Assembly: GCA_963802945.1 (NCBI GenBank)
Contig: CAWDKY010000029.1
Location: forward strand, 128,001-192,000
DNA from: an uncultured delta proteobacterium
GTDB lineage: Bacteria; Desulfobacterota; RBG-13-43-22
Direction of reading: 5' to 3'
Length of the DNA: 64,000 bases
The notes below the pieces were generated by a model. That model searched no databases. It saw only the letters and a program-made list of their open reading frames with translations, and was not told the origin of the DNA. The first letter of the stretch is position 1. Every line of letters begins with the position of its first letter. Positions 6,923 to 25,235 of this stretch are shown in pieces. A program made the translations under genes and the position numbers.

Positions 6923-7177
6923 ATGACCATTAAAGAAAAGCTGAAAAAAATGATTGTGGAAGAACTCAAACTGGAAGAGATCCAACCCGAAGAGATCGAG
7001 GATGATGCCCCTCTGTTCGGCGAGGGATTGGGACTCGATTCTTTGGATGCCGTTGAACTCGTTGTTCTTATTGAAAAGCATTTTGGAGTTGAAATCAAGA
7101 ACCTTGATAAAGGGCGTGTTGCCTTCCAGTCGATTAATACATTGGCTGCTTTCATAGAGGAGAGACAGGTTTCATGA
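6923..7177 (+). CDS. Acyl carrier protein (aryl-polyene type)
   Basis: LFGEGLGLDSLDAVELV phosphopantetheine site. Confidence 0.9.
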   Translation: MTIKEKLKKMIVEELKLEEIQPEEIEDDAPLFGEGLGLDSLDAVELVVLIEKHFGVEIKNLDKGRVAFQSINTLAAFIEERQVS

Positions 7178-8379
7178 GCTTCACCTCCTCTGTGGCTATA
7201 ACCGGAATGGGCTGTCTGTGTGCCCCGGGTCATACCCTTACGGAATGCATGGATGCCCTTTTCAGGGGGGAAAGAAATCCTGCTCCGTCTTCAAGATTCC
7301 ATTCCGATCATTCGGTTTCCTATCCGGTTTTTGAAGTTACCGACGACCTGACATCGTTAAAAATCAAGGGGACCAAAAATGGCTCGCGTACTGCCAGGCT
7401 GGCCATGGCCGCGGCCTTGGAAGCCATCGGCAATGCCGGACTGGATAAGGAATGGATTCGTTCAAAACGGGTAGGGGTCTGTATGGGTACAACTGTAGGC
7501 AGTGCCATGAACAATGAAGCTTTTTATCGACAATACCGACAGGACGAGGAGCCGGATATGGACCCCATCACCAGGTTTCTTAACAATAATCCAGCGTCGG
7601 TTCTGTCCAGGGCGTTTAATCTGACCGGGCCCTGTCAGACAGTGGTCAATGCCTGTTCTTCCGGTACTGATGCGGTCGGACTCGGGGCCCTCTGGATTCA
7701 ATCGGGACTATGCGATATCGTACTGGCCGGCGGGGCCGATGAACTTTGCCATGTCACCTACAATGGATTTATCTCGCTTATGGTTACCGACGACTTGCCC
7801 TGCAAACCCTTTGATGTAGAACGGAAAGGTCTGAATCTGGGTGAAGGTGCTGCCGTGCTGGTTTTGGAATCCGAAGATTCAAGTCAGGCCAGGAAGAAAC
7901 AGGCCCGGGCCTTTGTCCGGGGGTACGGAGCCTCCTGCGATGCTTATCACCTGACCGCCCCTCATCCCCAGGGATATGGTCTAAAACGGGCGATTGAAGA
8001 GGCCATGGAAATAAGCGGCTCTGCTGCTTCGGATCTGGCCTTCGTCAATGCCCACGGAACAGGCACCAAGGATAATGACCGAGTCGAGTCTCAAGTCTTT
8101 AGTGACCTTTTACCAGGGATTCCTTTCCTTTCCACCAAGGGATATACGGGTCACACCCTGGGTGCGGCCGGGGCCATTGAAGCGGCTTTCACCGTGGCCT
8201 GTCTGGAAGAGGGGAGGATACCGAAAAGTGTCGGTTTCACCACCTCTGATCCGGAATTACCATGTTCCCCTGCAGGAATGGAAATGAGCGTTAAAGGAGC
8301 TGTTGCCCTTTCAGAGTCCCTGGCCTTTGGCGGCCATAACGCAGTTCTGATCATTGGGATAGAAAGAGGTCTGTTATGA
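7174..8379 (+). CDS. Beta-ketoacyl-ACP synthase (FabF-like)
   Basis: NACSSG, NAHGTGT, GYTGHTLGAAG, SLAFGGHNA. Confidence 0.9.
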   Translation: MSFTSSVAITGMGCLCAPGHTLTECMDALFRGERNPAPSSRFHSDHSVSYPVFEVTDDLTSLKIKGTKNGSRTARLAMAAALEAIGNAGLDKEWIRSKRVGVCMGTTVGSAMNNEAFYRQYRQDEEPDMDPITRFLNNNPASVLSRAFNLTGPCQTVVNACSSGTDAVGLGALWIQSGLCDIVLAGGADELCHVTYNGFISLMVTDDLPCKPFDVERKGLNLGEGAAVLVLESEDSSQARKKQARAFVRGYGASCDAYHLTAPHPQGYGLKRAIEEAMEISGSAASDLAFVNAHGTGTKDNDRVESQVFSDLLPGIPFLSTKGYTGHTLGAAGAIEAAFTVACLEEGRIPKSVGFTTSDPELPCSPAGMEMSVKGAVALSESLAFGGHNAVLIIGIERGLL

Positions 8380-9503
8380 GGCTGGCCATTCAAGGGGTTG
8401 GTGTGGTTGGTGGATTCGGCTGTGGCGTAGAAGCCTTAAGCCATGCGCTGGCTAATCAAGAGTCCAAGAGACAGAGTGTTTCTATCAAAACCGCCCAGGG
8501 AATGTGCAAGGTACCCGCCTTTCTGGCCGATACCTCCAGACTTGAGGATTTCGTGAATAAGAAGGCCCTGCGCAGGATCGATCACTATTCAAAACTGGCT
8601 CTGCTGGGGGCTTATCTGGCTCTCAATGATGCCGGCGGGGGTGCCGGACAATCAGAGGCAGACCGACAAAGGATGGGCATGATCATAGCTACCGGCTATG
8701 GGGCCTGCCGAACCACCTTTACCTTTCTTGATTCGTTTATTAATGACGGAGATAAATTTTCATCGCCGACCTATTTCTCAAATTCCGTTCATAATGCCGC
8801 CTTGGCCAACGTTTCCATGCTTTTGGGCATAACCGGGCCTGGTTTGACCGTAAGTCAACTCGAGATGTCCATCCCATCGTCCCTCTTTACCGCCAGAAAC
8901 TGGCTGGAAGAAGGCCGGGTCGATTCAGTACTTTTTGGGGGGATCGATGAATACTGTGATGTTCTGGGCTACTGTTGGCACCGTTTTTTTGGAGAACAAG
9001 GGGATACCGGCCAGGACATGAATCCTCTCTCTTTCAATCTGCAGAGCGCCATGCCCGGAGAAGGGGCGGCCTTTTTTTTGCTGACAAGAGCAGAAAAAGA
9101 CATGACTCCCTATGGGTGTATTGGTGATATAGCCATGGGGAGATTCGATCGAGGAAATTTAGAAGTGCCTGAAGAAGCAGTGCTGATCATCGGTGCTGAT
9201 GGTCAGAAAAAGTGCGGGAGTTATTATAAACGATATATTCCCGAGAGTGCACCGATGGCCTGTTACACCCCTCTCTATGGAAGCCTTCCGGTTGGCCCGG
9301 CCTTCGATATGGCCATAGCTGCTTTATCCATAAAAAACAACAAGGTTTTTCCTTCTCCCCATTGCCTCACGGAGATTCCTGAGATGAGGATCATAAGCAA
9401 AGAGACTGATCTCGCTTGGGAAAAAATCTGCTGCTTAAAAATAGACGGTTATGGTGAATGGGGAAGAATTACTTTGAGTGCTTTTCCTCTTTCCATCCTT
9501 TAA
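8376..9503 (+). CDS. Chain-length-factor-like ketosynthase homolog (no catalytic Cys)
   Basis: LRRIDHYSKLA, SPTYFSNSVHNAA; the Cys position reads SQLEMS. Confidence 0.8.
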   Translation: MRLAIQGVGVVGGFGCGVEALSHALANQESKRQSVSIKTAQGMCKVPAFLADTSRLEDFVNKKALRRIDHYSKLALLGAYLALNDAGGGAGQSEADRQRMGMIIATGYGACRTTFTFLDSFINDGDKFSSPTYFSNSVHNAALANVSMLLGITGPGLTVSQLEMSIPSSLFTARNWLEEGRVDSVLFGGIDEYCDVLGYCWHRFFGEQGDTGQDMNPLSFNLQSAMPGEGAAFFLLTRAEKDMTPYGCIGDIAMGRFDRGNLEVPEEAVLIIGADGQKKCGSYYKRYIPESAPMACYTPLYGSLPVGPAFDMAIAALSIKNNKVFPSPHCLTEIPEMRIISKETDLAWEKICCLKIDGYGEWGRITLSAFPLSIL

Positions 9504-9640: not shown

Positions 9641-11128
9641 CTAGATTCGCACCTCTTGCTTGAATCGCTCTGAGCCCACGATAAATTTCACAGTGGAGAG
9701 AGAACCTAAAATTGTGCCCAAAATACCCGGGGCCAACACGCTCTGGCCGGCCAAAAAAAGGCCTCGCAAGGAGGTCCGATTCAACAACGCGGCCGAAAGC
9801 ATTTGGTCGTTCGATCGCATGACCCCGTAAGCCGATCCTTCAGGACTGTTGACCCAATCCCGGATAGTCAAAGGGGTAAAGACGTCGAGGATCTCCAGCC
9901 CATGGAAGGGACCTAAAATCTTTTCTGCCCTCCCAATAATACTATGGGCCATATCAAGTTTCTTCTGGATGTAATCCGGACCGCGCTGTCCGGAGTGTGT
10001 CTGTTGCCAGGCTTGCCATATTTCATTATGACCTGAGGTGATCAGCGTCAACAGATTCTGTCCCGGTTCATCACTGGAGCGTAATTGCAGAAAGATCAGG
10101 TCCAGGAGGTCACCGTTGGAGTCGGGCTGTGCCAGGTATAAATTATGTAGAATTTCGGGGTGCAGCTCGGTCGGCACAAGGGCGTGTACCGCCATCATAC
10201 CGGCGGTATCCCTTAACTCCATAATCCTCCGACGGTAGGAGGCTTTAATGACTCCAGGCTCTAATAACTCGATTATCCTCTTAGGGTGGATCGTGCCGAC
10301 AATGAAGGAGGCGTCAAGGGTTTCTCCTGATTCCAGGGTAACTCCCCGGACCCGGCCGTCGGCCGTTCGAATGCCGGCTACCGCTTCTCCGGTACGCAAG
10401 CCTCCTCCCAGGGATTTCAGGCGTTGAGCGCAGACGTCAACCATGGTCGCTCCCTGCCCTTTTAGGCGCCAGGCGGACAAAAGGTAGCTGGCCAGGGTCA
10501 TGGAGTGATAGAACTGGGGGCACACTTCATGAGGCACACCAATCAAGACTGACGGCAGTCCAAAGACAGCCCGCAGCCCGGGGGAACAGCCGATCCGGTC
10601 GAAAATCGCTCCCAGCGGTTCGGCTTGATCAAACCAGTATTCAGTCGGTCGGTCGGAATATAAAAATGACAGGCGGTCCAATTGGTCGGCGCCGCGGCGT
10701 AACATAGCCATCAAAGCGGCCACTTGTGTTCTTTGGGTTGGAAAGGCGGTGTTTAAACTGGCTTCGTAAGACTCAAAACCGGTGGGCACATCGAAACTAT
10801 CGATCCCAAGATGGTTGTCGGTGAAAATGATACCGTCCACCGGCGCATCAATCCCCATCCGAATAAGTGGAAGCTGATCGGTAATTCCCAGAAAATCGAA
10901 ACAGCGGCGCAGAATCTGGCCATGATCCAGGGCGCCCATGTAATGCAGGCCGACGTTGCACTGCACCCCCCGGCGTGCGTAGCTGCGCATCATCCCACCG
11001 GGTTGTCGATTCTTCTCGATGACGGTGACTTCAAAACCGAGCTTGGCTAAAATGATGCCCGTGCTCAGGCCACCGATCCCGGAGCCGATGACCAGGACCT
11101 TTTCCTTGCCTTCTTTTAGTGCAGGCAT
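9641..11128 (-). CDS. Phytoene desaturase/retinol saturase-like FAD-dependent oxidoreductase
   Basis: VIGSGIGGL Rossmann motif, EKNRQPGG, TPLTIRDWVNSPEGSAYG, GLFLAGQ. Confidence 0.85.
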   Translation of the reverse strand: MPALKEGKEKVLVIGSGIGGLSTGIILAKLGFEVTVIEKNRQPGGMMRSYARRGVQCNVGLHYMGALDHGQILRRCFDFLGITDQLPLIRMGIDAPVDGIIFTDNHLGIDSFDVPTGFESYEASLNTAFPTQRTQVAALMAMLRRGADQLDRLSFLYSDRPTEYWFDQAEPLGAIFDRIGCSPGLRAVFGLPSVLIGVPHEVCPQFYHSMTLASYLLSAWRLKGQGATMVDVCAQRLKSLGGGLRTGEAVAGIRTADGRVRGVTLESGETLDASFIVGTIHPKRIIELLEPGVIKASYRRRIMELRDTAGMMAVHALVPTELHPEILHNLYLAQPDSNGDLLDLIFLQLRSSDEPGQNLLTLITSGHNEIWQAWQQTHSGQRGPDYIQKKLDMAHSIIGRAEKILGPFHGLEILDVFTPLTIRDWVNSPEGSAYGVMRSNDQMLSAALLNRTSLRGLFLAGQSVLAPGILGTILGSLSTVKFIVGSERFKQEVRI

Positions 11129-11176
11129 TGGATTGTTCCCTTTCTAGTAAGCTTCCATTCTAAAAATGCAGAAGAG

Positions 11177-11945
11177 TCAGGGCTCACGCTGGAGTTCAAA
11201 GGCTTGCCTGACTTGCTCGATCAGTGCATGAATCGAGAAAGTATCACTGTCGTATTCCGGCGGAATGCTTACAATCCGTTTTACTTCAATCGTAATCGGA
11301 ACACAGGTATTTAATAAGAATGTGCCCGGCTTTAATAACCTATTCGTATTGGTTGATCATCAACACCTGAATCGGAGCATGATATTGCCTGGCAATGGTA
11401 AAGGCCCCTTTGTTTAACCGCCCGATCTTCCCGTCTCGGCTTCTCGTACCTTCCGGAAAGACGAATAAATTCCCCCCTGATGACAAATAATTTTCCATAT
11501 GCTTGATACGTTCCAACATAAGGACAGTAAAAGTCTCCTCTTTCGTTGAAAATAAATACCCGGATTTTTTTAACACCCATCCGAAAACGGGTACTTTCAG
11601 AAATGTTTTTTTAACGACCGTCTTTTGTTTTTCAAACAGAGAAACCAGAAGGATCGGATCGAGGTATGAAAGATGATTACAGACAATAACGGAAGACCGG
11701 ATGGAACAAACGTCGTCGTCAATGCGGATGTTTAAGCGGGGGGTGATGATTCGCAGGACGATAAAAAACGATTTGAAAAATCGGTGATTTATTTTTTGAA
11801 AAGAATTTTCGAGGTTATCAGAGAATAGGAAGGAAAAGAGATAAAAGGGAGAGAATAAAATGAAATAGCCAAAGGTAAAATATATCCATATAATAATGGT
11901 GACAAAAAAATCAATAGAACGTTTAATCCATTTGGGAATGGTCAT
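11177..11945 (-). CDS. 1-acyl-glycerol-3-phosphate acyltransferase (PlsC-like), +1 frameshift near 11352
   Basis: NHLSYLD (HX4D), FPEGTRS; C-terminus TNRLLKPGTFLL...QREP* continues in the next frame. Confidence 0.8.
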
Positions 11946-12025
11946 TTTATATTTTAGGAGGTAAGTATTGGCAGTGAGTTGTTTTTTGGAAAACTTTAAA
12001 AAACAAGCCCCTCAGACACCAAATT

Positions 12026-13270
12026 TTAAATATCTTTAGCTGGATTTTTGATAATCAGGCAGGTGTTAACACCCCCAAAGGCAAAATTTTGGATAGCAGC
12101 CATTCGGATGTTGCCTTCCTGAAGTTTCAGGGCGTGCCGAATCATGGCACAACGGTCATCCACTACCTCCAGGTTCAATGTTGGAGCCATGAATCCTTCT
12201 TCCATCATGTAAAGGCAGAGAATGGTTTCGATGACACCGCAAGAGCCCATCGTATGTCCCATATAACTTTTTAAACCGGCAACACAGGGTGAATTCCCAT
12301 AGACCGAATGGATAGCCTGCGCCTCAATAATATCCCCCATTTTGGTTCCTGTGGCATGAGCGCTCACAAAATCAATCTGATCCGAAGAAATTCCGGCATT
12401 CTCGAGCCCAAGTAGAAGCGTCTGGGTGACGCCGTTTAGATTGGGCAAAATCAAATCGCCGCCGTTATTAGTGCAGGAAAAGCCAATGACTTCTCCAAGG
12501 ATGTTGGCCCCCCGTTTACAGGCGTGTTCGTATTCTTCCAACAGGACCGCCCCGGCGCCTTCGCCAACGACCAGACCGTCTCTTCTGGAATCAAACGGGC
12601 GAGGGGTGAGATGCGGGGTGTCATTAAAAGCAGTGGAACAGGCCAAAAGATTATCAAAAACAGCAACGGTCGTAGTGTCATATTCGTCAGCCCCACCGCA
12701 AAGCATGGCCTCCTGCATCCCGAACTTGATCGATTCATATCCAAAACCGATGGATTGGCTGCTGGTCGTGCAGGCCGTTGAAGAAGAAATAACCCGCCCC
12801 GTAATTCCAAACATCTTGGTGATATTCACCGCTGTCGTATGGACCATGGATTTCAGGTATTCAACTGCACCGATGTTTGAATATTCGGAAGAAGAGCCCC
12901 CGAAAAAGATTTTATAGATATCCCTCTGAACCGAAGGGCTGCCATGAGTTGATCCAAAGGCTACGCCTAAGCGTCCTGAGGTGATAAACGCATTATCTAA
13001 ACCGGAGGCCTCAATAACTTCCTTGGCCACCTGACAGGCATAATAGGCCACCGGACCCATGGTCTTGCGATGCGAGCGTTTGAAATCATATTCAATGGGA
13101 TAATCTACCGTTCCGAAAACTCCGGAATGGATATAACTGGTCAGAAGATCATCCTTGCGTAACGGTTTTACTCCGGAAATTCCCTTAACCAGGCTATTGA
13201 TGATTTCTTTTTTGGAATGCCCAATAGGGGTAATCGCTGAACAGGCGGTAATAACGACTCTTCTTTCCAT
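12026..13270 (-). CDS. Beta-ketoacyl-ACP synthase (FabB/F-like)
   Basis: TACTTS, SAHATGT, SYMGHTMG, NFAFGGVN. Confidence 0.9.
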   Translation of the reverse strand: MERRVVITACSAITPIGHSKKEIINSLVKGISGVKPLRKDDLLTSYIHSGVFGTVDYPIEYDFKRSHRKTMGPVAYYACQVAKEVIEASGLDNAFITSGRLGVAFGSTHGSPSVQRDIYKIFFGGSSSEYSNIGAVEYLKSMVHTTAVNITKMFGITGRVISSSTACTTSSQSIGFGYESIKFGMQEAMLCGGADEYDTTTVAVFDNLLACSTAFNDTPHLTPRPFDSRRDGLVVGEGAGAVLLEEYEHACKRGANILGEVIGFSCTNNGGDLILPNLNGVTQTLLLGLENAGISSDQIDFVSAHATGTKMGDIIEAQAIHSVYGNSPCVAGLKSYMGHTMGSCGVIETILCLYMMEEGFMAPTLNLEVVDDRCAMIRHALKLQEGNIRMAAIQNFAFGGVNTCLIIKNPAKDI

Positions 13271-14512: not shown

Positions 14513-14633
14513 GTTTTTCTTTCTCCTCAAGTTATTAAGGGTTTATAATAATCTTGACCTGAAATGGATGGACTTACCTAACATTGGACTGGGGGATCTT
14601 TTTTGGGGCTTGTCTAAAAGGTAACTCATTGCC

Positions 14634-15098
14634 CTACCCCGGCCCGTCCAGTAAAGTTTTTTCGGAAAGGGCTTCCTCCTCCGGCTCCATGACTTGGATC
14701 GTGGTTTTAAAATGGAAGTCCGACCCAGAGTCGACCTGACCTTCATACACGGCATATTTTTCAACATAATAGGTCTCGGCAATATGGATAACAAGCCTCG
14801 TCCCCAAAGGAATGCTGGAGGGAGAAAATTCAGCTTCTTTAAGACCGACTACGAATCCAAGTCGCGATTCGGCTCCTTTTCCTTCATTCCAGGTTCTCAA
14901 GGCAGCGATGGCTTGGGCGACCAGTTCGATACATATCAAGGAACTCACCATACCGTCTCGGTGAAGAGGCCAATTGGCGTTTACGGTAGCTTCTGCCTGC
15001 AGGGTTTTCTCGATCGGTCGTCTTACCCATTCCAAGAGCCTCATAAGATGACGGTGCGGGATCAAAGGTTCAGCAGGAAACAATTCATTCCGTTCCAT
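14634..15098 (-). CDS. Hotdog-fold dehydratase partner (ApeP-like)
   Basis: LIPHRHLMRLL, IELVAQAIAA, LGFVVG. Confidence 0.75.
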   Translation of the reverse strand: MERNELFPAEPLIPHRHLMRLLEWVRRPIEKTLQAEATVNANWPLHRDGMVSSLICIELVAQAIAALRTWNEGKGAESRLGFVVGLKEAEFSPSSIPLGTRLVIHIAETYYVEKYAVYEGQVDSGSDFHFKTTIQVMEPEEEALSEKTLLDGPG

Positions 15099-15600: not shown

Positions 15601-15688
15601 ATTCTATCCATAACTATTGGTATTGTCAATATTAAATAAACTTTATACTTAATTTCTCTTGACCTCAGGTTCTAATCCATTTTATAAT
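15601..15688. promoter_or_regulatory. Divergent sigma70-type promoters
   Basis: Minus: TTGACA-N17-TAGAAT (15629-15601); plus: TTGACC-N18-TATAAT (15659-15688). Confidence 0.65.
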
Positions 15689-15740: not shown

Positions 15741-16016
15741 ATGATGCCTGAAAAGGAAGACATTAAGGGCATTATTGAAAATGTAGCCCAAAAAATAATT
15801 TTTGAACTCAAACTGGAAGATGTAACGGTGGAAACGTTCAATCCTGATTTGGATCTGATCGATGAACTGGGAATTGACAGTATGGATCTGGCCACTATCG
15901 CTCTGGTTTTACAGGATGAATACAAGATTGTCATTGACGAAGACGATTATCCCAAATTGAAGACCATTCGCTTGATCGCCGAATATGTTGAGGAAAGAGT
16001 TAAAGCCCGGAGTTAA
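15741..16016 (+). CDS. Acyl carrier protein
   Basis: LGIDSMDLATI; GGAGG RBS. Confidence 0.9.
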   Translation: MMPEKEDIKGIIENVAQKIIFELKLEDVTVETFNPDLDLIDELGIDSMDLATIALVLQDEYKIVIDEDDYPKLKTIRLIAEYVEERVKARS

Positions 16017-16074
16017 GAATCCGGCAGCCCGATCCCGGTGCTAGGGTAGAGCAACTGAGAGGAACTCATTCGCC

Positions 16075-17145
16075 ATGACCATGAATCATCAGCCATTCTT
16101 GGAACCAGACCAAACGAAATTTTCCGAACTGCTTGCCCATCCGGAAGTCAGGCAGCGGTGGGAGAAAGTCCGAAAATATTTTTTCCTGCGGGAATCCACC
16201 TATGACATGAGCAATCGCTGCAATCTCCGTTGCGACGGATGTTATTATTATGAGGGGGAAAAACAATTCGCCGTTGAAAACAATCAGGTCGAAGCCTGGC
16301 GGGAACTGATGCAAACCGAAAAAAAACGGGGTATCACTTATGTGGTTCTGGCCGGGGCTGAACCCTCGCTCGTTCCGGAACTGTTGGAGGTATGCTTTCA
16401 GGAAATGCCGTTGGGCAGCATAGCCACCAATGGGTTGAAAAAAATCCCGGAATCGGTTGGATATAAAATCCACATTTCGGTTTGGGGTAACGATGAAACC
16501 AGCCTTCAGGTTCGGAAGGCCAGGGATCTTTTAACAAAACAAATCGAAAATTACCGGAATGACCCGCGGGCCGTTTTTGTCTATACCTTCACCCGGGTCA
16601 ATATCGCAGAGGTCTGGGAGGTGGCCGAACGCCTCGTGGCCGAGGATTGTAAGTTGACCTTCAATGTTTTTTCCTCCCCGATCGGCTATAAAGGACCTTT
16701 ACGCCACAATGAAGATTCACTGGAACGTACCAGAAACAATATGATCGCCCTCCTGGAGAAATATCCTCAGCAGGTTTTGTTCTCGGTCTATAATGCCGTT
16801 GCCCATACCCACCGCGGCAGTTTGCATGACCTTTTTGCCTGCCAGTACCCTCGACAAAACCCCTCTCAGGACATTGGCCTGGGACGGTCCTTTCGACAGT
16901 ACCGAACGGATTTAAAATGGGACCGGTCGGTGGCCTGCTGTGTGCCGGATACCGATTGTAGCGATTGCCGGCATTATGCCTCAGGTTCAGCTGTGGTCAC
17001 CGCCCGTCTTTTTCGTCATGCCGGTCAATTGGACACCTTCAAGGCTTGGCTGGATTATGTGGATACGTACCTGGCGGTATGGGTGATGGGGTATCCCAAA
17101 GGGGAGAATCTCTGTCCGGCCCCGGTCAGCCCCCCGATGACCTGA
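16075..17145 (+). CDS. Radical SAM protein (no B12 domain) with Cys-rich C-terminus
   Basis: CNLRCDGC, LAGAEP, ATNG; C-terminal CCVPDTDCSDC. Confidence 0.85.
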   Translation: MTMNHQPFLEPDQTKFSELLAHPEVRQRWEKVRKYFFLRESTYDMSNRCNLRCDGCYYYEGEKQFAVENNQVEAWRELMQTEKKRGITYVVLAGAEPSLVPELLEVCFQEMPLGSIATNGLKKIPESVGYKIHISVWGNDETSLQVRKARDLLTKQIENYRNDPRAVFVYTFTRVNIAEVWEVAERLVAEDCKLTFNVFSSPIGYKGPLRHNEDSLERTRNNMIALLEKYPQQVLFSVYNAVAHTHRGSLHDLFACQYPRQNPSQDIGLGRSFRQYRTDLKWDRSVACCVPDTDCSDCRHYASGSAVVTARLFRHAGQLDTFKAWLDYVDTYLAVWVMGYPKGENLCPAPVSPPMT

Positions 17146-17198
17146 ACTCCGGACCGAAAAATCAGAAAAACAAAAAGAAGGCTTTAAGAGACGACTTT

Positions 17199-18197
17199 AT
17201 GAAAACCGTCAGTTCATTATTAGATTCATCCTGGTCCGAACGTTATCGGAGGATTTCCAAATTAAATATCCGCAGTTCCATCTATGATGTTACCAACCAA
17301 TGCAATTTGCGCTGTAAGGGGTGCTTTTTCTTTTCCTCCAATGAACATCGGGCGGCCCGGGAAGAAATGGATCTAAAAAAGTGGGAGACTTTTATCGACC
17401 GGGAAAAAGAGCGGGGCGTCAATCTGGCCATATTGATCGGCGGAGAGCCGACCCTTTTCCTGGACAGGGTTGAGGCCTTTTATCATCGGCTGCCGACCTA
17501 TTGTGCCACCAACGGCTTGATCAAAGTGCCCCGGGATCGGTTTCCTGATATGATGATCGGGATCTCTCTCTGGGGCAGTCCTGAAGATGAAAAAATGCTC
17601 AGGGGAAAAGACACCTTTGCCGTTTCCAGTAAGCATTATGCCGGTGACCCCTATACCTATTATCTGTACACCATCACGCCACGGCAGGTAGGTAAAATCG
17701 AACCGGTCATTAAAAGAATCGCCGATATCGGGTTGAAGGTTCATCTTCAGCTTTTGTCAAACGACGAACATGTGGAAGGCTTTTCCTGGCGGGAAGAAGA
17801 ACTAACGGCCTTGCGTCACGAACTGGATGAAATGTTGGATCGGTATCCCCAAACGATCATTTCCTGCAAATATTACCATCAAATCATCACCACAGGGACC
17901 ATGATGGGCCGTCCCTTCGGCTGGAACGAATGCCCCTCTGTAACCGAATCCTTAGACAATAGGAATCCCCAGCCCCACCGTTTGATTCACTTCATCCGCT
18001 GGGCTTCTGATTTAAAGACGGTCCACCGCTGCTGCACTTCAGCCAGCCGGGACTGTTCCACCTGCAAGGACGGGGCGGCCCACATGAGCTGGGTTATGGT
18101 CAACAAAAGGGAACATATTCGGTCGACCGAAGATTTGCAGAACTGGATCGAAGTTTATGAAATGTTCGCCAAACTGTATCATTTTATCCCCTGGTGA
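17199..18197 (+). CDS. Radical SAM protein, paralog of the upstream gene
   Basis: CNLRCKGC, IGGEP, ATNG; C-terminal RCCTSASRDCSTC; true start probably MKTVSS at 17199. Confidence 0.85.
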   Translation: MKTVSSLLDSSWSERYRRISKLNIRSSIYDVTNQCNLRCKGCFFFSSNEHRAAREEMDLKKWETFIDREKERGVNLAILIGGEPTLFLDRVEAFYHRLPTYCATNGLIKVPRDRFPDMMIGISLWGSPEDEKMLRGKDTFAVSSKHYAGDPYTYYLYTITPRQVGKIEPVIKRIADIGLKVHLQLLSNDEHVEGFSWREEELTALRHELDEMLDRYPQTIISCKYYHQIITTGTMMGRPFGWNECPSVTESLDNRNPQPHRLIHFIRWASDLKTVHRCCTSASRDCSTCKDGAAHMSWVMVNKREHIRSTEDLQNWIEVYEMFAKLYHFIPW

Positions 18198-18374
18198 TTC
18201 CGGGCGGGACTTTGGCAGTCTGCTTTTTCCGGCATTCAAATCCGACCTCCTCATCGATTCCATCGAAAAGAGAAAAAGCGCTGGCTTGGTCTCCTCAACG
18301 GTAGGTGATGCCTCAGGGCATATACTTAAAAATTTATTTCTCTTCAAATGTTCTTTTTGATTTGAGTACTCTTT

Positions 18375-19625
18375 ATGGAATCAAAAAAAGCAGTCATTTT
18401 AGGATATGATGCTGTTTCCCCTTTAGGAACGGACTGGAAAACCCAATGGGAAAGGGTGGTACGCGGGGACTCAGGAATAGGCCCCCTAACCCGTTTTTCC
18501 TTAAGTCCCGATTTCCCGGTAAGGGTGGCCGGGGAAGTTCCGCCTTTTGATATCAAGCCTTTTCCTTTTTTGCAACCCCGGGAAATGGCCCATTGGACTT
18601 CCCCTATTTTCCCCAACGCCCTGTTGGTCGTCCACCGCGCCCTGCAAAAAAGCGGTTTGGTGATTACACCCGAGATAGCCCCCCGCGTGGCCGTCACCTT
18701 CAGCAGTGCCATCGGAGGGCTGGATGCCGTGTTGGTGGCGGACCGCTTGATGGTCTCCCAGGGGAAAATGCCCCATCCCTTTACCAACCCCAACTCATGC
18801 ATCAATATGGTCGGCGGACGGGTCTCTGTTTTCACCGGGGCTACCGGACCCATCTTTTCCACCATTACGGCCTGCGCCACGGGCGTCACCTCATTAATCA
18901 CAGGGGCAATGCTTCTGCGTCAGGGGCTGGCCGATGTGGTCATCGGAGGAGCGGTCGATTTTCCGTTGGTTGAACCGATCGTTGCCGGCTTTGTCACCAT
19001 GAACGGCGCTTATCATCCCAAAGAGGGTCAGCCGCTTGAACCGCCTGAAAAAACCAGCCGGCCTTTTTCCGTTAACCGCAGGGGGTTTGTGGTTTCCGAA
19101 GGGGCAGCCTGCATTATCATTGCCTCAGCGGAATTCGCTGCCGCCCATGGACTTAAAGCGCCCATAGAACTGGCCGGGTTTGGAATGACCTCGGATGCCA
19201 AGCACTTCGTTGCCCCTAATCTGGAAACCGTTCAAAGATCCATGGAGCTGGCTATCACCCAGGCCGGGATTAATCCCTCGGATATCGATGCCATAAACGC
19301 CCACGCCACTTCGACCAAGGTAGGGGACAAGGTGGAGGTTGATGCCCTGCATAATATCTTCGGAAAACGCATTCCTCCGGTATCGGCCAATAAATCCCAA
19401 ATGGGCCATGCCATGGGGGCCTCCAGCGCCATTGAGGCCATTTTCGCCATGGAAGGGTTGCTCAAAGATACCTTGCTTCCCACGATTAATTATCTCCCTG
19501 ATCCGGAAGTTGAATTGGACTGTGTGTCCGAAGGGGCCAGAAAATTGAACGGAGAATTTATCTTGAAAAATGCACTGGGCTTTGGCGGGTGCAATGCCTG
19601 TTTGGTTTTACGGAGATTGTTATAA
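18375..19625 (+). CDS. fabF: Beta-ketoacyl-ACP synthase II family
   Basis: TACATG, NAHATST, SQMGHAMG, LGFGGCN. Confidence 0.85.
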   Translation: MESKKAVILGYDAVSPLGTDWKTQWERVVRGDSGIGPLTRFSLSPDFPVRVAGEVPPFDIKPFPFLQPREMAHWTSPIFPNALLVVHRALQKSGLVITPEIAPRVAVTFSSAIGGLDAVLVADRLMVSQGKMPHPFTNPNSCINMVGGRVSVFTGATGPIFSTITACATGVTSLITGAMLLRQGLADVVIGGAVDFPLVEPIVAGFVTMNGAYHPKEGQPLEPPEKTSRPFSVNRRGFVVSEGAACIIIASAEFAAAHGLKAPIELAGFGMTSDAKHFVAPNLETVQRSMELAITQAGINPSDIDAINAHATSTKVGDKVEVDALHNIFGKRIPPVSANKSQMGHAMGASSAIEAIFAMEGLLKDTLLPTINYLPDPEVELDCVSEGARKLNGEFILKNALGFGGCNACLVLRRLL

Positions 19626-19653
19626 AGGATAAACTGGAAAAACTCTAAATCCG

Positions 19654-19790
19654 GACGGCTTCGTAAAAAGTTCGCAGGTAAGGCGCGCAAATCCTGAGAA
19701 ACGAGGCGTACACATAGGTACGCCGCAATGACGAAGGATGAAGCGCAATCCCGCGAAACGCGGGACTTCCGGACTTTTTACGAAGTCGTC
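19654..19790. mobile_element. ~137 bp MITE with 18-bp terminal inverted repeats
   Basis: gacggcttcgtaaaaagt ... actttttacgaagtcgtc; internal hairpins; no ORF. Confidence 0.7.
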
Positions 19791-19811
19791 ATAAAGGACG
19801 TGCAGTGAACC

Positions 19812-21077
19812 ATGAAGGCACCTAAAAACAGAAGGGTGTTTGTTGTCGGTTATGGGATGGCCACACCCCTGGGCAGCACCTTTGAGAAGACCTGGAAGCG
19901 GGCTGTCAAAGGGGAAGCCGGGTTCCGGAAAGTCACCCGATGCCAGGTGGAATCGGCCTGCAACATTGTCGGAGAAATCCCGGACTGGAATCCCTTAGAG
20001 CTGGATTATATCGATGCCAAAGAAGTGTACAACTGGAACGCCGGTTTTGTTATCATGACCATGGCTGTCTGTCAGGAAGCCCTGCAAAACGCCGGGATTA
20101 CCATGGATGAACAGATTTCCCCCCGAATGGCCTGCCTGATGGGCTCTGCCTTAAATGGGCCGGATGCTTTTCGTATCGCCATGCAGGACCTGGAACAACG
20201 GGGACCTTTAAGGGTAAGCCCTTATCTGCTCCCCAATCTATGCGCCAATGTACCTGGCGGAAAGGCCGGCATGCTCCTAAAATTCACCGGTCCCATCTTT
20301 TCTCCCCAAGGGGCCTGCGCCTCGGGGAACCATGCCATCGGGATAGGGGCCAGAATGATCCGGGACGGGGATTGCGATTTCGTATTGGCCGGCGGGGCCG
20401 ATGCCCCTATTCTGCCGGAATTGATCCACGGCTTTGCCAATATGAATGCTACGATCAAGGTCTACCCAAAAGATCGGGCCTTTACAGATCCAGCCCAGGC
20501 TTCACGCCCTTTCAGTCTTGACCGAAGAGGATTTGTTCTTTCTGAAGGAGCCGGCGCAGTAATTCTGGCGGCGGAAGAAGTCATTAAGGCTTACGGTCTC
20601 AAGGCCCTGGCCGAGGTCTTAGGGGTAGGCTGGACTTCGGACGCTTATCATTACACCAGTCCCAATCCCGTCACCATTGTCCGGGCCATCAGGGAAACTA
20701 TTGAGGACGCTGGCTTGGAGCCAAAGGACATCCAATATATCAATGCCCACGGTACGTCTACGCCCAAAGGGGACCGGACGGAAATAAAATGCCTTCGTGA
20801 AGTGTTCGGCAAGGCCATTGAAAAAATCCCCGTTTCTTCCAATAAGTCCCAATTTGGCCACACTTTGGGGGCCACCGCAGCAATTGAAGCGGCCTTAACC
20901 ATCGAAGCCATGGGAAGAGGGTGTATCTTACCGACTATCAATCATATTCCTGATCCGGAATTTTCCGATATCGATGTAGTGCCCAATGAAGTCCGCCGGC
21001 ATCATTATGAATTGGCTCTTTCCAATGCCTTTGGGTTTGGAGGGACGAACTGCTGTATTATTTTCAGGGGGGTGTGA
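19812..21077 (+). CDS. fabF: Beta-ketoacyl-ACP synthase II family
   Basis: GACASG, NAHGTST, SQFGHTLG, AFGFGGTN. Confidence 0.85.
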   Translation: MKAPKNRRVFVVGYGMATPLGSTFEKTWKRAVKGEAGFRKVTRCQVESACNIVGEIPDWNPLELDYIDAKEVYNWNAGFVIMTMAVCQEALQNAGITMDEQISPRMACLMGSALNGPDAFRIAMQDLEQRGPLRVSPYLLPNLCANVPGGKAGMLLKFTGPIFSPQGACASGNHAIGIGARMIRDGDCDFVLAGGADAPILPELIHGFANMNATIKVYPKDRAFTDPAQASRPFSLDRRGFVLSEGAGAVILAAEEVIKAYGLKALAEVLGVGWTSDAYHYTSPNPVTIVRAIRETIEDAGLEPKDIQYINAHGTSTPKGDRTEIKCLREVFGKAIEKIPVSSNKSQFGHTLGATAAIEAALTIEAMGRGCILPTINHIPDPEFSDIDVVPNEVRRHHYELALSNAFGFGGTNCCIIFRGV

Positions 21078-21562
21078 AGATGCGTCCCAAACCTTTTCGA
21101 CCCGAACCTTTCACTAACGATCCCAACTTTATCCGCGACCAATCCACTGGTTTGATCTGGCACCGCTCTAAGTATAGAACGTTATATGCCGATACGGACC
21201 GTTCGGCCGTGGTTTATCATGCCAATTACTTGAGATTTTTTGAATTCGGACGAACCTCTTTGATGCGCGACTTCGGTTACCCCTATAAAGAAATCGAAGC
21301 CAGCGGCTTTGTTTATCCCATTATCGATTTAAGGATCGGATATTATTCTCCCTTGTATTATGATGACGTCATGCTGATCCATACCCGGCCGACCCACCTG
21401 GAAAGGGTCCGACTGCAGTTTGACTACCTGATCACCGAAGCGGAAACCGGCCGGATCGTCTGCATCGGATATACTAAACACTGCGCCCTGAATGCCAAGG
21501 GGCTTCCTGTGGCCGTGGACCCCCAAACGATTGCCCTTTGGAAATCCTTCCCCGGTGACTAA
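21074..21562 (+). CDS. Acyl-CoA/ACP thioesterase (YbgC/4HBT family)
   Basis: YADTDRSAVVYHANYLRFFEFGR. Confidence 0.85.
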   Translation: MKMRPKPFRPEPFTNDPNFIRDQSTGLIWHRSKYRTLYADTDRSAVVYHANYLRFFEFGRTSLMRDFGYPYKEIEASGFVYPIIDLRIGYYSPLYYDDVMLIHTRPTHLERVRLQFDYLITEAETGRIVCIGYTKHCALNAKGLPVAVDPQTIALWKSFPGD

Positions 21563-21610
21563 GGGTCTCATAATAGTTTTGGCATGAAACGTTTTGCTTC
21601 GCATTAGATT

Positions 21611-21829
21611 AAGGACCAGGGAGGTTTTATTTTTGGGGTTGTCCACTCTGAACCTGGAAGCTTCTTTACCGGGCCAATTATTTAACTAAATCAAAAGCAG
21701 GCCTTCACCTGGGCTCGAAACAGGCTACGGTGGAGGCCCTGCCTCGAATCAAACTTTGCTGGACTGGCCGGGATAGGGCGATAAATTACCCTTTGGACAA
21801 TCCCCAAAAATAAAACCTCCCCGGTCCTT
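21611..21829. mobile_element. ~220 bp MITE-like element with ~35-bp terminal inverted repeats
   Basis: aaggaccagggaggttttatttttggggttgtcca ... tggacaatccccaaaaataaaacctccccggtcctt; the right half recurs at ~26070-26203. Confidence 0.7.
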
Positions 21830-21869
21830 TTTAGACAATGTTATTTTGAGACCCTTATTAAATCAAAAA

Positions 21870-22703
21870 ATGCGCCATCCTTTGGAAATTGAAGTCGGTG
21901 ACTATTTATTGGACCATCGATTTGAAGGCCGGTGTGTTTTGCCGGCGGCAGAGGCTTTAAATGTCCTGGCCATGGTTGTTCATGAATATTTTTCCAATTG
22001 GGATATGGTTTGTTTGACCGAAGCGCGGTTTCCCCGTTTTCTGATTATCCCCCCTGAAATACACCGTCTGCCGGTCATCGTCGAAATAGATCACACCCCC
22101 AAGGGGGGTATTTCAGCTGGGCTTATGACCTCGATGAGATCAAGGACTGGAGGCATCAGCCGTAACCTGGAGCATGCCCGGGTGGAATTTTTTCTGGCCA
22201 ATTCTTCCTCAATTTCTGTGCCGTTTTTAACCGATGTGGGAAATCCCGACGGACAGGGCTTCACGATACCGGTTGTTTCGATTTACCCCCAGCTGATCCC
22301 CTTCGGGACGGCTTATAGGAATATTATCGGCCCGGTGTCTCTTTCACCCCTAGGGGCTTCGGCTTCCCTGTTCGGCGGGGATCAGAGAAAGGAGGATGAT
22401 CTGCTCGGCTCCCCGTTTCCCTTTGATGCCGCTCTTCAGATGGCTTGTATCTGGGGGCAATGTTTTACCGAGCATGTTCCCTTCCCAGTGGGTTTTGAAA
22501 AAAGGGTCATCTACCAGAAAACCAAAAAAGGGGGTTTCTACCTCGGCAGGATTATACCGGTGGCGGTTGAGCAGAACCCGTTCTTATTTGACGCCCTGAT
22601 TATTGATTCCCAAGGGTCTATCTGCGAGGAAATCCTGGGAATTCAGATGCAGGATGTATCTCAAGGGCGCCTGCACCCGCCGTCATGGATCAAAGAGTTG
22701 TGA
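21870..22703 (+). CDS. Stand-alone PKS-type (double-hotdog) dehydratase
   Basis: YLLDHRFEGRCVLPAA (HxxxGxxxxP), FGTAY, PFPFDAALQ. Confidence 0.8.
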   Translation: MRHPLEIEVGDYLLDHRFEGRCVLPAAEALNVLAMVVHEYFSNWDMVCLTEARFPRFLIIPPEIHRLPVIVEIDHTPKGGISAGLMTSMRSRTGGISRNLEHARVEFFLANSSSISVPFLTDVGNPDGQGFTIPVVSIYPQLIPFGTAYRNIIGPVSLSPLGASASLFGGDQRKEDDLLGSPFPFDAALQMACIWGQCFTEHVPFPVGFEKRVIYQKTKKGGFYLGRIIPVAVEQNPFLFDALIIDSQGSICEEILGIQMQDVSQGRLHPPSWIKEL

Positions 22704-22934: not shown

Positions 22935-23106
22935 TAAAAGTGACGGACATCGGAGACTCATGGAGGAGATTTGCCCTTCAAGGCTCAAAGATCAGTAAGG
23001 CTGTTTACCCGATGGAGACGACTACGGACGTTTGTATGACATCCTTCTGGATTGTGGGCAGAAGGAATCCCATTTATATCAGGAGTTATCGGTAAAAATC
23101 CGTTGA
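22935..23106 (+). pseudogene. C-terminal remnant of a BtrH/DUF4872-like protein
   Basis: VTDIGDSWRRFALQGSKISK then (shifted) DDYGRLYDILLDCGQKESHLYQEL*; this gene usually precedes the ABC exporter in flexirubin/aryl-polyene clusters (recalled). Confidence 0.45.
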
Positions 23107-23114
23107 AGGTATGT

Positions 23115-23867
23115 ATGTTTTCCGATGTAAAAATACTTTCTGCTGACCGATTGGTCAAGATCTATCCGAAACGATCCCAACCGGCCATAAACGGAATTAC
23201 ACTCTCCATCACGGAAGGGGAGGTTTTCGGTCTTCTTGGCCCGAATGGGGCCGGAAAGACTACGGCGATTTCAATCATGACCACACTGCTCAAACCTACG
23301 AGCGGGAGCCTTACGATCTGCGGATTGGATACCCTCAGATACCCTGCTCAGGTAAGAGGTCTTATCGGCTTTGTTCCCCAGGAGGTCGCCCTTTATCAGA
23401 ATCTCACCCTTCGTGAAAATCTCAGATTCTTTGGCCGTATCTATGGGTTGCGAGGGAAAGAACTGGCAACCCGTATCTCCGAATTTATTGAAATGGTAGG
23501 TCTTGAGGAAAGTGCCGATTCCCTTGTTTTCACCTTTTCCGGGGGAATGAAGCGTCGGGCCAACTTGGCGGCGGGTATCCTCCACAAGCCGAAGGTTCTC
23601 TTTCTTGACGAGCCGACCGTGGGAGTTGATCCCCAATCCAGAAATTTAATCCTGGAGAGACTTGCCGGATTAAAAGAAAAAATCACCATGGTCTATACCA
23701 CCCACTATATGGAAGAGGCCGAATCACTCTGTTCTTACGTGGCTATCATGGATGCAGGGCAAGTCATCATCGAAGGAACTCCTGAGGAGCTTCTTCGACG
23801 GTTCCCCGAGTGTATCGATTTGGAAGCCCTTTTTATTAAACTGACCGGGAAACAACTTCGAGATTGA
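23115..23867 (+). CDS. ABC-2 exporter ATP-binding protein
   Basis: GPNGAGKTT, FSGGMKRR, LFLDEPT, TTHYMEEA. Confidence 0.92.
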   Translation: MFSDVKILSADRLVKIYPKRSQPAINGITLSITEGEVFGLLGPNGAGKTTAISIMTTLLKPTSGSLTICGLDTLRYPAQVRGLIGFVPQEVALYQNLTLRENLRFFGRIYGLRGKELATRISEFIEMVGLEESADSLVFTFSGGMKRRANLAAGILHKPKVLFLDEPTVGVDPQSRNLILERLAGLKEKITMVYTTHYMEEAESLCSYVAIMDAGQVIIEGTPEELLRRFPECIDLEALFIKLTGKQLRD

Positions 23868-23876
23868 CAGGTTGCT

Positions 23877-25235
23877 ATGGTTAAATTCTGGTCTTTTGTT
23901 CAAAAAGAACTGATCCTCTTCTACCGTGATTTTTCCGGCCTGTTGGTGTTGTTTGTCATGCCTTTGGCCCTGGTTATTGTGGTCACTTTGGTTCAGGAGA
24001 ATGTTCTTAAATACATGGGAGAGACTAAGAACCGGGTGCTTTTTGTTGACCAGGATGGAAAAATGATAGGGAAATGGGTAGAAGAATCCTTAAGAAAGTC
24101 CGGTTCGATAGAAATGGTCAAGGACCTCAAAGGAAAACCGGTCGATATAGAAACGGCCAAAAAGGCAGTGCTTAGAGGAGATTTCCAGACCTGTGTCCAA
24201 ATCCCCCCCGGGCTGACCGAAGCTTTCAAAAAAAAAGTTCGACAATCGGTAAAAAACTCTCTTGCTCCTGATGCTAAAAAAAGGAAAACCCTGACTGCAG
24301 GAGATAAAGGTCTTCTGTTTGTTCCGGTCTATTTTGATCCAACCCTTCGGGAAAACTACCGGACCGGGATGATCAACGGTCTGGAAAAAATGATCCTGGG
24401 ATTGGAAATCAAAGAAAAGATGGGGGTCTTCTCGGAACTCTTGCCGGAAAAAATGGAAGAAATGGCTAAAAAAGTGGCCGGGCCTATGTGGTCGGATGAA
24501 TTTAAAAAAGGGATACCCAAAATTCAATTAGACTGGGACGAAAAGCCCCTTATGGCGATTAAAGAGAAGACGACTCAATCTCAAGACGTCATCGTGGTTT
24601 TTAGTACCATACAGCAGAACGTTCCAGCCTGGACCCTCTTCGGTATGTTTTTTATCGTGGTTCCTCTGGGCGGTTCCCTTATTCGGGAAAGACAAGAGTT
24701 GATGCTGGCCCGACTTCTGACCATGCCGACTTCTTATCTCACCATCATTTCCGGAAAGATCCTGGCCTATGTTATGATATGTTTGGTCCAGGTTGTCCTC
24801 ATTTTTTCTGTCGGGAAGTTTTTGTTGCCGCTTCTTGGGACACCCGGTCTGGAATTGGGGGCATCACCAATGGCGTTATTACTCGTTGTTTTAAGTTCGG
24901 CCCTGGCCGCCTCCGGGTATGGCATACTCCTGGGTACCATTGCCAGGACTTATGAGCAGGCTTCCATGTTCGGCGCCGTCTCGGTGGTGATCGCCGCAGC
25001 TCTTGGCGGAGTGATGGTTCCGGCCTATTTTATGCCGAAAGTGATGCAGGAAATCAGTAGTTTTTCCCCTCTCGCCTGGGGCCTGAATGCATTTTTAAAC
25101 GTGTTGGTTCGCGGCGGGAATATACGATCGATCATTCCCGATGCAGCCTTATTGATGAGTTTCTTTGTAATAACCGTCAGCGTGGCCTGGTTTTATATGT
25201 TTAAACGAGGGCGGGTCGGAATTCAGCAACAGTAA
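23877..25235 (+). CDS. ABC-2 exporter permease
   Basis: N-terminal TM, periplasmic loop, QNVPAWTLFGMFF, multiple C-terminal TMs. Confidence 0.88.
   Translation: MVKFWSFVQKELILFYRDFSGLLVLFVMPLALVIVVTLVQENVLKYMGETKNRVLFVDQDGKMIGKWVEESLRKSGSIEMVKDLKGKPVDIETAKKAVLRGDFQTCVQIPPGLTEAFKKKVRQSVKNSLAPDAKKRKTLTAGDKGLLFVPVYFDPTLRENYRTGMINGLEKMILGLEIKEKMGVFSELLPEKMEEMAKKVAGPMWSDEFKKGIPKIQLDWDEKPLMAIKEKTTQSQDVIVVFSTIQQNVPAWTLFGMFFIVVPLGGSLIRERQELMLARLLTMPTSYLTIISGKILAYVMICLVQVVLIFSVGKFLLPLLGTPGLELGASPMALLLVVLSSALAASGYGILLGTIARTYEQASMFGAVSVVIAAALGGVMVPAYFMPKVMQEISSFSPLAWGLNAFLNVLVRGGNIRSIIPDAALLMSFFVITVSVAWFYMFKRGRVGIQQQ

Follow-up and report, generated by a model that had tools for sequence, protein, structure and literature searches.

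In a 64,000-nucleotide stretch of DNA from an uncultured delta proteobacterium (positions 128,001 to 192,000 of contig CAWDKY010000029.1, assembly GCA_963802945.1; hereafter the window), seven plus-strand genes fill positions 15741-22703, mostly with short gaps or overlaps between neighbours. The genes encode an acyl carrier protein (ACP), two related radical S-adenosylmethionine (SAM) enzymes designated rSAM1 and rSAM2, two ketosynthases (KS-A and KS-B), a thioesterase and a dehydratase of the polyketide synthase (PKS) type. An operon of this composition had been proposed from a reading of the DNA alone, referred to below as the original prediction, and all of its gene calls were confirmed. 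The genes are as follows.

15741-16016, plus strand: ACP of 91 residues, 34.8 bits on PF00550 (PP-binding), with a DSM serine motif
16075-17145, plus strand: rSAM1, radical SAM enzyme of 356 residues, 32.5 bits on PF04055 (cut-off 29.5)
17199-18197, plus strand: rSAM2, paralogue of rSAM1 of 332 residues, 30.7 bits on PF04055 (cut-off 29.5)
18375-19625, plus strand: KS-A, FabF-type ketosynthase, Cys-His-His intact in the alignment, 332 bits on TIGR03150
19812-21077, plus strand: KS-B, FabF-type ketosynthase, Cys-His-His intact in the alignment, 388.9 bits on TIGR03150
21074-21562, plus strand: YbgC/FadM-type hotdog thioesterase, 82.5 bits on TIGR00051 (cut-off 68.7) and 49.9 bits on 4HBT_2
21846-22703, plus strand: PKS-type double-hotdog dehydratase of 285 residues, with weak Pfam matches, conserved motif residues and a likeness to CurK and CurF

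The open reading frame of rSAM2 opens at 16965, and the ATG at 17199 is the start common to its orthologues. The likely start of the dehydratase is an ATG near 21867. The gaps between the ACP gene and rSAM1 and between rSAM1 and rSAM2 are 53-58 nt, the latter being 53 nt in the window, while the thioesterase start and the KS-B stop share an overlap of 4 nt.

rSAM1 and rSAM2 are identical at 81 of 321 residues (25%, E 1e-32), a similarity far above chance which marks the two proteins, at the level of sequence, as the true paralogues they had been taken for. rSAM1 has YDMSNRCNLRCDGC as its iron-sulfur cluster motif and rSAM2 has YDVTNQCNLRCKGC, ATNG occurs in both proteins, and the C-terminal cysteines are arranged as CC-x5-C-x2-C in rSAM1 and CC-x6-C-x2-C in rSAM2; every motif quoted in the original prediction is present. 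Residues that do not vary are C49/C53/C56, G94, E96, C288, C295 and C298 in rSAM1 (72-sequence alignment for CX3CX2C) and C35/C39/C42, C279, C286 and C289 in rSAM2 (71-sequence alignment for CX3CX2C). Among 50 diverse full-length members of the family to which both proteins belong, all 50 keep the CX3CX2C motif, the G-x-E SAM-binding motif and four C-terminal cysteines, and N119-G120 and R147 are likewise invariant. The C-x5/6-C-x2-C motif lies near the C-terminus in 50/50 members with the extra cysteine 12-45 residues upstream, and the CC doublet is kept in 37/50. In SPASM domains, two auxiliary clusters are served by seven or eight C-terminal cysteines. Because only four C-terminal cysteines are conserved in the rSAM1/rSAM2 family, a single auxiliary cluster is predicted rather than the two of SPASM, and the arrangement fits a twitch-like domain. 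The description of the pair as lacking B12-binding domains is also borne out, as PF02310 matches neither rSAM1 nor rSAM2; it is matched instead by two upstream genes at 3027-4295 and 4288-5652.

The original prediction had recognised no characterised family for the pair, and profile searches agree with it. The generic Radical_SAM model (PF04055) is the only Pfam model that passes its cut-off for either protein, and no Pfam match to SPASM is listed. Among NCBIfam models the top scores, about 30 bits, compare with cut-offs of 180-650, none being near its own cut-off, and the NCBIfam models of SPASM families give 16-33 bits against cut-offs of 300-855. On the Tes model NF045702, whose cut-off is 450 bits, the two proteins score 28.3 and 22.6, over the N-terminal core only, and rSAM1 and rSAM2 are about 150 residues shorter than Tes. 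When the family profile was compared with the PDB, the best match was SkfB (E 2e-17), which covers the core only and begins at SkfB residue 111. SkfB, the best solved relative of the family, is a twitch enzyme. Since no more than 34-48 residues precede the cluster motif in rSAM1 and rSAM2 and the match to SkfB begins at residue 111, there is no room for a peptide-recognition domain. An exhaustive HMMER search across 1.84 billion representative proteins recovered 475 relatives at E <= 0.001, with 87 at E <= 1e-30; fragments are frequent among them, and the source names of these relatives are all generic. Judged by these searches, rSAM1 and rSAM2 share one small family that is named by no Pfam, NCBIfam or PDB entry.

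Structure prediction is in keeping with this assignment. AlphaFold2 models with a mean pLDDT of 90.9 for rSAM1 and 94.5 for rSAM2 present both proteins as confident radical SAM barrels, and the top Foldseek matches of both models are all radical SAM enzymes with a probability of 1.0. The folds closest to rSAM1 are SkfB, SuiB, CteB and anSME (TM about 0.5), and those closest to rSAM2 are CteB, anSME and SkfB. Further near folds of the two models are ChlB, BlsE and DesII, with TM again about 0.5 and 12-20% identity. A TM of about 0.5 amounts, for these models, to likeness in the core to the twitch/SPASM group and to nothing closer. A predicted complex of rSAM1 with rSAM2 received a score of 0.00 in a run without controls, which counts neither for nor against binding. 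A 706-residue open reading frame at 10001-12118 of one related locus (L005) joins the two proteins and was rejected as a natural fusion, given that the frame shifts just before the usual rSAM1 stop; the read-through is probably most simply an indel in a long-read assembly.

The arrangement of the genes is strongly conserved among related bacteria. A scan of species-representative genomes yielded 549 confirmed rSAM1 relatives, and the locus counts given here refer to the best 80 of these 549, whose products are 74-96% identical to rSAM1. These loci come from one order-level group of Syntrophales type and are labelled mostly Syntrophaceae, Smithella, Smithellaceae, Syntrophales, Thermodesulfobacteriota or 'delta proteobacterium', with one Pseudomonadota. 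Where enough flanking DNA was available for the locus to be testable, an ACP gene lies directly upstream of rSAM1 in 77/77 loci and rSAM2 directly downstream in 75/75. Also downstream of rSAM1 are KS-A in 66/70 testable loci, KS-B in 59/63, the thioesterase in 56/60 and the dehydratase in 54/58, so that the ketosynthase, thioesterase and dehydratase genes follow the triad in approximately 93% of testable loci. The pair is therefore conserved beside ACP and ketosynthase genes, as the original prediction requires. The four loci that fall short in these downstream counts are L078, in which the genes stand about 4.5 kb further on, and L005, L058 and L077, whose available DNA lacks them. According to the family profile, each complete locus contains exactly two family members. 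Median identity to the window is 84% for KS-B, 81% for rSAM2, 78% for rSAM1 (a figure that is biased because the loci were picked by their similarity to rSAM1), 76% for KS-A, 75.6% for the ACP, 72% for the thioesterase and 48% for the dehydratase. In L080 the rSAM2 orthologue occurs as two overlapping pieces in different frames (11066-12059), which is either a frameshift or an assembly error.

The family extends well beyond this order. A wider search, seeded with the nearest relative of rSAM1 from outside the Syntrophales, found 1746 proteins at E <= 1e-20, and the named sources include Reinekea marinisedimentorum, Pyrinomonadaceae, Myxococcota, Polyangiaceae, Desulfobacteraceae and Pseudomonadota. 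Of these, R. marinisedimentorum is a cultured species with the rSAM1 type. In a tree of 70 sequences (quick IQ-TREE run, midpoint root, support from the Shimodaira-Hasegawa-like approximate likelihood ratio test, SH-aLRT, only), 17 sequences form an rSAM1-type clade and 11 an rSAM2-type clade, each with 100% SH-aLRT support, and the two clades are sisters with 96% support. The 42 other family members, including alphaproteobacterial proteins from Ponticaulis and Sphingomonadaceae, fall outside both clades. From this tree the rSAM1 and rSAM2 types appear as ancient sister clades. Both types are named from Pyrinomonadaceae/Blastocatellia, and both occur in Acidobacteria, Myxococcota and Gammaproteobacteria too. 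The named rSAM1-type and rSAM2-type proteins stem from different assemblies, and adjacency of their accessions is thus uninformative on adjacency of their genes. Metagenomic data indicate indirectly that the pair travels together in another lineage, in that the rSAM1-like P0308 and the rSAM2-like P0287 each occur on 3 contigs, the longest being 71,540 bp, and P0436 and P0289 each occur on 2 contigs, the longest being 8,034 bp. In an rSAM2-type protein of 724 residues (P0222), the radical SAM domain is joined to an N-terminal docking domain of the TubC kind and to a type-I thioesterase domain. By this fusion, one member of the family sits at an assembly line's carrier-protein end.

The other products of the operon resemble enzymes of fatty acid and polyketide synthesis. 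None of the NCBIfam equivalog models for ACPs reaches its cut-off for the operon ACP. KS-A and KS-B retain the active-site cysteine and both histidines in the alignment, and both score below the TIGR03150 cut-off of 493.75. Their best PDB matches are FabF (E 2.9e-79 for KS-A and 9.2e-87 for KS-B), which makes ordinary FabF, and not polyketide ketosynthases, their closest solved relatives. The dehydratase matches its Pfam models below threshold throughout (PKS_DH_N, 21.1 against 27; PS-DH, 19.8 against 23.7). HxxxGxxxxP and Dxxx(H/Q) are the names given to the two motifs of such dehydratases. In the first of these, H24 and P33 are invariant in 53/53 sequences and G28 is kept in 50/53, and D194 of the second is invariant in 53/53. 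The protein aligns weakly over its full length with the curacin CurK dehydratase in the PDB (E 0.018) and matches CurF there with E 0.0035. The label of a PKS-type dehydratase holds because of the end-to-end alignment with CurK and the invariant H24, P33 and D194.

A stretch of about 280 bp at 21563-21845 separates the thioesterase stop from the dehydratase start. It is missing from a 96%-identical locus (L001), in which the thioesterase and dehydratase genes abut. The stretch contains 36-nt inverted repeats at 21611-21645 and 21794-21829 (94%), and partial copies of it are found at 14600-14679 of the window and in L001, L003 and L006. In these features it looks like a small non-autonomous mobile element.

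Promoter-like sites occur ahead of the operon.

15601-15688, both strands: divergent promoter-like sites in the 224-bp gap between a minus-strand dehydratase gene and the ACP gene

The site on the plus strand (15659-15688) reads TTGACC-18-TATAAT and that on the minus strand (15629-15601) TTGACA-17-TAGAAT, each with 11/12 positions. The whole gap region holds 10 promoter-like sites against 11.2 in shuffled sequences, and such sites are thus not enriched. The two outward-facing 11/12 sites are consistent with divergent promoters and do not amount to proof of them. An Rfam scan found no riboswitch near the operon.

Lipid-related genes surround the operon. The region 1-25235 of the window contains two ACPs, at least 5 complete ketosynthase-like genes and a split ketosynthase-like stretch at 1006-2851, together with four radical-SAM-type genes, a CrtD-like flavoprotein, a GT2 glycosyltransferase and hotdog dehydratases. 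The operon that diverges from the one at 15741-22703 includes a PlsC-type acyltransferase gene at 11340-11945, dehydratases resembling ApeI and ApeP, and a FabG with a score of 299 bits on FlxB, a flexirubin model. Behind the dehydratase gene lie a HAD phosphatase and, at 23052-25235, an exporter that consists of a DrrA-type ABC ATPase and an ABC-2 permease. At 7174-9503 an intact ketosynthase is followed, with a 4-nt overlap, by a ketosynthase-like protein without the catalytic cysteine and both histidines. By its residues this pair resembles a ketosynthase/chain-length-factor pair, as reported for anammox Cluster I. The first of the two upstream genes with B12-binding matches (3027-4295) has no Radical_SAM match, while the second (4288-5652) has both and is followed by the GT2 gene. 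In the split stretch at 1006-2851, a 167-residue partial ketosynthase N-domain piece overlaps a 479-residue open reading frame that comprises a ketosynthase C-domain and then a second ketosynthase N-domain, an arrangement for which a frameshift or a fusion could account. On the minus strand at 35101-35823 lie two group II intron matches from Rfam, RF02003 (73 bits) and RF00029 (45 bits).

The usual layout in the Syntrophales departs from that of the window upstream of the seven-gene unit, and in 40 loci the dehydratase gene is followed by a gene for PlsY. The genes of this layout are the following.

L049 3065-3754, minus strand, divergent from the operon: flavin-reductase/rubredoxin fusion gene, 44 loci
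Upstream: FabA-like gene, 36 loci
Upstream: protein of 137 residues without an assigned function, 41 loci
Upstream: additional ACP, 35 loci
Upstream: B12 radical SAM gene, 51 loci
Upstream: polysaccharide deacetylase, 54 loci
Upstream: ApeI-like hotdog protein, 52 loci
Directly after the dehydratase (for example L049 16166-16735): PlsY, acyl-phosphate:glycerol-3-phosphate acyltransferase, 40 loci

The flavin-reductase/rubredoxin product could donate electrons to the radical SAM clusters.

Based on these observations, the operon may constitute a dedicated module resembling a fatty acid synthase (FAS), in which the paired radical SAM enzymes tailor an ACP-bound acyl chain destined for a membrane lipid; the chances of this proposal appear about even. 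The operon's own ACP would hold the growing acyl chain. rSAM1 and rSAM2 would each split SAM at the CX3CX2C cluster and take hydrogen from the ACP-tethered chain, and the single C-terminal auxiliary iron-sulfur cluster would take up an electron. The outcome would be oxidative, either formation of a ring or another C-C bond or an oxygen-independent desaturation. The two enzymes would work successively, at two positions or in two steps, while KS-A and KS-B would lengthen the chain and the PKS-type dehydratase would handle beta-hydroxy intermediates. Finally, the hotdog thioesterase would free the product or glycerol-phosphate acyltransferases would receive the chain, and the product would be an unusual acyl chain of a membrane lipid. 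The PlsY gene that stands behind the operon in 40 loci, together with the PlsC-type gene at 11340-11945, leads us to infer a lipid fate. The view of the original prediction that the pair are radical enzymes acting on ACP-bound acyl chains is accordingly reasonable but unproven.

Several observations weigh against this proposal. The support for the function of the family comes from sequence and gene context, and the nearest solved folds belong to enzymes that modify peptides or sugars, not lipids. The synteny may be largely inherited and not selected, because all 80 loci come from one order-level group. Within the flanking DNA examined, three of 70 loci (L005, L058 and L077) have no ketosynthase genes behind the triad. 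The plus-strand operon also contains no ketoreductase, enoyl reductase or acyltransferase, and these functions would be needed from elsewhere. In the window it is the ABC exporter, not PlsY, that follows the operon, which suits a secreted product equally well. A search for rSAM1-rSAM2 fusions among longer proteins found none, which by the search's own statement is weak evidence.

How the two enzymes share their work bears on the first of the rival explanations. The two genes always lie side by side in an unchanged order, only 53 nt apart in the window; rSAM1 (78%) and rSAM2 (81%) rank with the operon's best-conserved genes, and both clades have been retained together across phyla. Such a pattern would suit an obligate heterodimer that carries out one joint transformation, like a two-domain radical SAM enzyme divided between two proteins, a possibility that is entertained only tentatively. 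Each protein, however, keeps its full set of catalytic and auxiliary cysteines, so that neither looks like a mere scaffold, and no genuine fusion has been seen, the read-through in L005 being a likely indel and the search of longer proteins (weak evidence) being empty. AhbC/AhbD, MqnE/MqnC and GrsA/GrsB are examples of paralogous radical SAM pairs whose members act one after the other. Because of this analogy and because the catalytic residues are all kept in both proteins, two successive reactions are considered most likely and are favoured over one joint reaction. A different kind of product is suggested by the exporter behind the operon in the window, by the divergent operon with its ApeI-like and ApeP-like dehydratases and its FabG scoring on FlxB (299 bits), by the lack of an encoded enoyl reductase, by the PKS type of the dehydratase, and by the fusion of one family member (P0222) to assembly-line docking and thioesterase domains. 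The operon might then make a secondary metabolite for export, namely a polyketide of polyene or aryl-polyene-like type with radical tailoring, and not a bulk membrane lipid. This is judged unlikely, as KS-A and KS-B are closest to housekeeping FabF and not to type II PKS ketosynthases, the commoner Syntrophales layout ends in PlsY (40 loci) without a transporter, and most of the group's genomes carry the operon, as they would a core function.

The substrate of the pair could also differ from an ACP-bound chain. Both proteins give weak N-terminal matches to Tes/GDGT-MAS (7tol in the structure searches), and the family occurs in Blastocatellia/Pyrinomonadaceae of the Acidobacteria, a phylum in which, according to the part of the source available, producers of iso-diabolic acid without an mss homologue are reported (PMC13159169). 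It is conceivable, if improbable, that the pair acts on mature lipid tails as Mss and Tes do and that the ACP serves the neighbouring ketosynthase genes only. The Tes model, however, gives 28 bits against a cut-off of 450, the proteins are shorter than Tes by some 150 residues, and the ACP gene stands immediately upstream in 77/77 loci, even where ketosynthase genes are missing (L058 and L077). That rSAM1 and rSAM2 are maturases of RiPPs, peptides that are made on the ribosome and modified after translation, like their closest solved relatives, is very improbable. The best sequence and fold matches (SkfB, CteB, SuiB and ChlB) would point in this direction, but the N-terminal recognition domain is absent from both proteins, only four auxiliary cysteines are conserved and lipid genes adjoin the pair in every locus. 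Moreover, there is no room for a precursor peptide gene because the gaps between the ACP, rSAM1 and rSAM2 genes are only 53-58 nt.

Tailoring of an ACP-bound acyl chain thus remains the preferred reading, and it can be taken a step further, in a form that is speculative and on balance doubtful. The pair might perform a new radical reaction on the ACP-tethered acyl chain, an oxygen-independent ring closure or desaturation during chain growth, and so provide energy-starved syntrophs with a dense, low-permeability lipid as a counterpart of the anammox ladderanes. The same pair might underlie ladderane-type clusters across anaerobic phyla.

Since 2009, clusters that combine FAS and radical SAM genes have been pointed to as the likely route to ladderanes and to lipids of other anaerobes, and, in the available portions of two reports, no member of the radical SAM set of the ladderane clusters is characterised and the anammox proteins were not obtained by expression (PMC4790861, PMC10139942). 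The chemistry is thus a long-standing question. This kind of cluster was already known and is still unexplained; what the present analysis adds is a compact, strictly conserved core of three genes, ACP-rSAM1-rSAM2, whose radical SAM enzymes have a predicted twitch-like single auxiliary cluster and belong to ancient sister clades jointly retained across phyla. The suggestion that the pair is a candidate for new chemistry stands insofar as the family is uncharacterised, and needs amending insofar as the arrangement has a precedent from 2009 in Kuenenia and Desulfotalea (PMC2649909). Hosts of the family are easier to work with than anammox bacteria, and the naming of R. marinisedimentorum, with the rSAM1 type, and of many Syntrophales genomes with the pair opens the question to experiment outside anammox. 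Literature searches found no characterised enzyme of the rSAM1/rSAM2 family, no ACP-linked radical SAM system beyond the ladderane proposals and Jaw5, and no account of an ACP-rSAM1-rSAM2 operon in Smithella or Syntrophus.

Among known systems, the twitch/SPASM enzymes (SkfB, 6efn; anSME, 4k36-39; CteB, 5why; SuiB, 5v1q; BlsE, 7vob; DesII, 8hzv) have in common with rSAM1 and rSAM2 the radical SAM core and an extension rich in cysteine at the C-terminus. They differ in that SPASM enzymes use seven or eight auxiliary cysteines where four are conserved here, and in that rSAM1 and rSAM2 lack a peptide-recognition domain and occur in an ACP/ketosynthase context and not in a peptide or sugar pathway. 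Jaw5, a HemN-like enzyme, transfers methyl groups and uses a second SAM to do so, and the rSAM1/rSAM2 family gave no HemN-like relationship in the NCBIfam and PDB profile searches. A 2026 review describes Jaw5 as a radical SAM cyclopropanase which works with an iterative PKS and is proposed to alter a carrier-bound ketoacyl chain during elongation (PMC13459092). The same review treats the radical SAM chemistry of ladderanes as still hypothetical and counts no ketoacyl lipids other than ladderanes and the product of Jaw5 as presumed targets of radical SAM enzymes (PMC13459092). Tes/GDGT-MAS and Mss, which use radical SAM chemistry to functionalise lipid carbons that are not activated, give weak core matches to rSAM1 and rSAM2, but they act on finished glycerolipids and, as far as the available text of the source goes, are unlinked to ACP or ketosynthase genes (PMC13159169).

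The closest parallel in gene content is found in the ladderane-type clusters. In 2009, FAS-type clusters with ACPs, FabF paralogues and radical SAM genes were compared between Kuenenia stuttgartiensis and Desulfotalea psychrophila and put forward as lipid pathways, and like clusters were reported in Geobacter and Pelobacter, as the accessible sections of that study have it (PMC2649909). The Kuenenia cluster is kuste3335-3352 (Rattray 2009, PMC2649909; Javidpour 2016, PMC4790861). Adjacent radical SAM pairs without a B12 domain are given there as kuste3342/3343 and DP1853/DP1855, the former being described apart from the B12-type kuste2803 (PMC2649909), and kuste3342/3343 were undetectable upon expression in E. 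coli (PMC4790861). Clusters called as ladderane by antiSMASH have since been listed, with function unassigned, in Desulfobacterota and other non-anammox phyla in the part of the survey available (PMC9902471); the literature searched held no report of ladderanes outside anammox bacteria. Structural work on anammox Cluster I covers, in its available text, an ACP, FabZ and a FabF pair resembling a ketosynthase and chain length factor, and includes no radical SAM enzyme (PMC10139942; preprint 10.64898/2026.05.19.726425). That pair, amxFabF2/amxFabFmut, is unlike KS-A and KS-B, both of which are intact (preprint 10.64898/2026.05.19.726425). The 30 family clusters looked up, and searches of the Atlas, gave only generic names, with no entry from anammox bacteria or Desulfotalea. 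The hosts also differ, namely anammox Kuenenia and Desulfotalea as opposed to the Syntrophales-type bacterium of the window. The adjacent non-B12 pairs are likened to rSAM1 and rSAM2 by description and gene content, not sequence, and orthology of rSAM1 and rSAM2 to kuste3342/3343 or DP1853/DP1855 is a lead, not a result. With the ladderane-type clusters the region 1-25235 of the window shares genes of FAS II, additional ACPs, paralogues of FabF, genes for radical SAM enzymes and one resembling phytoene desaturase, and their glycosyltransferase and polysaccharide-deacetylase-like gene are also found in the window or in the Syntrophales loci. In gene content, therefore, the operon matches the ladderane-type FAS/radical SAM clusters.

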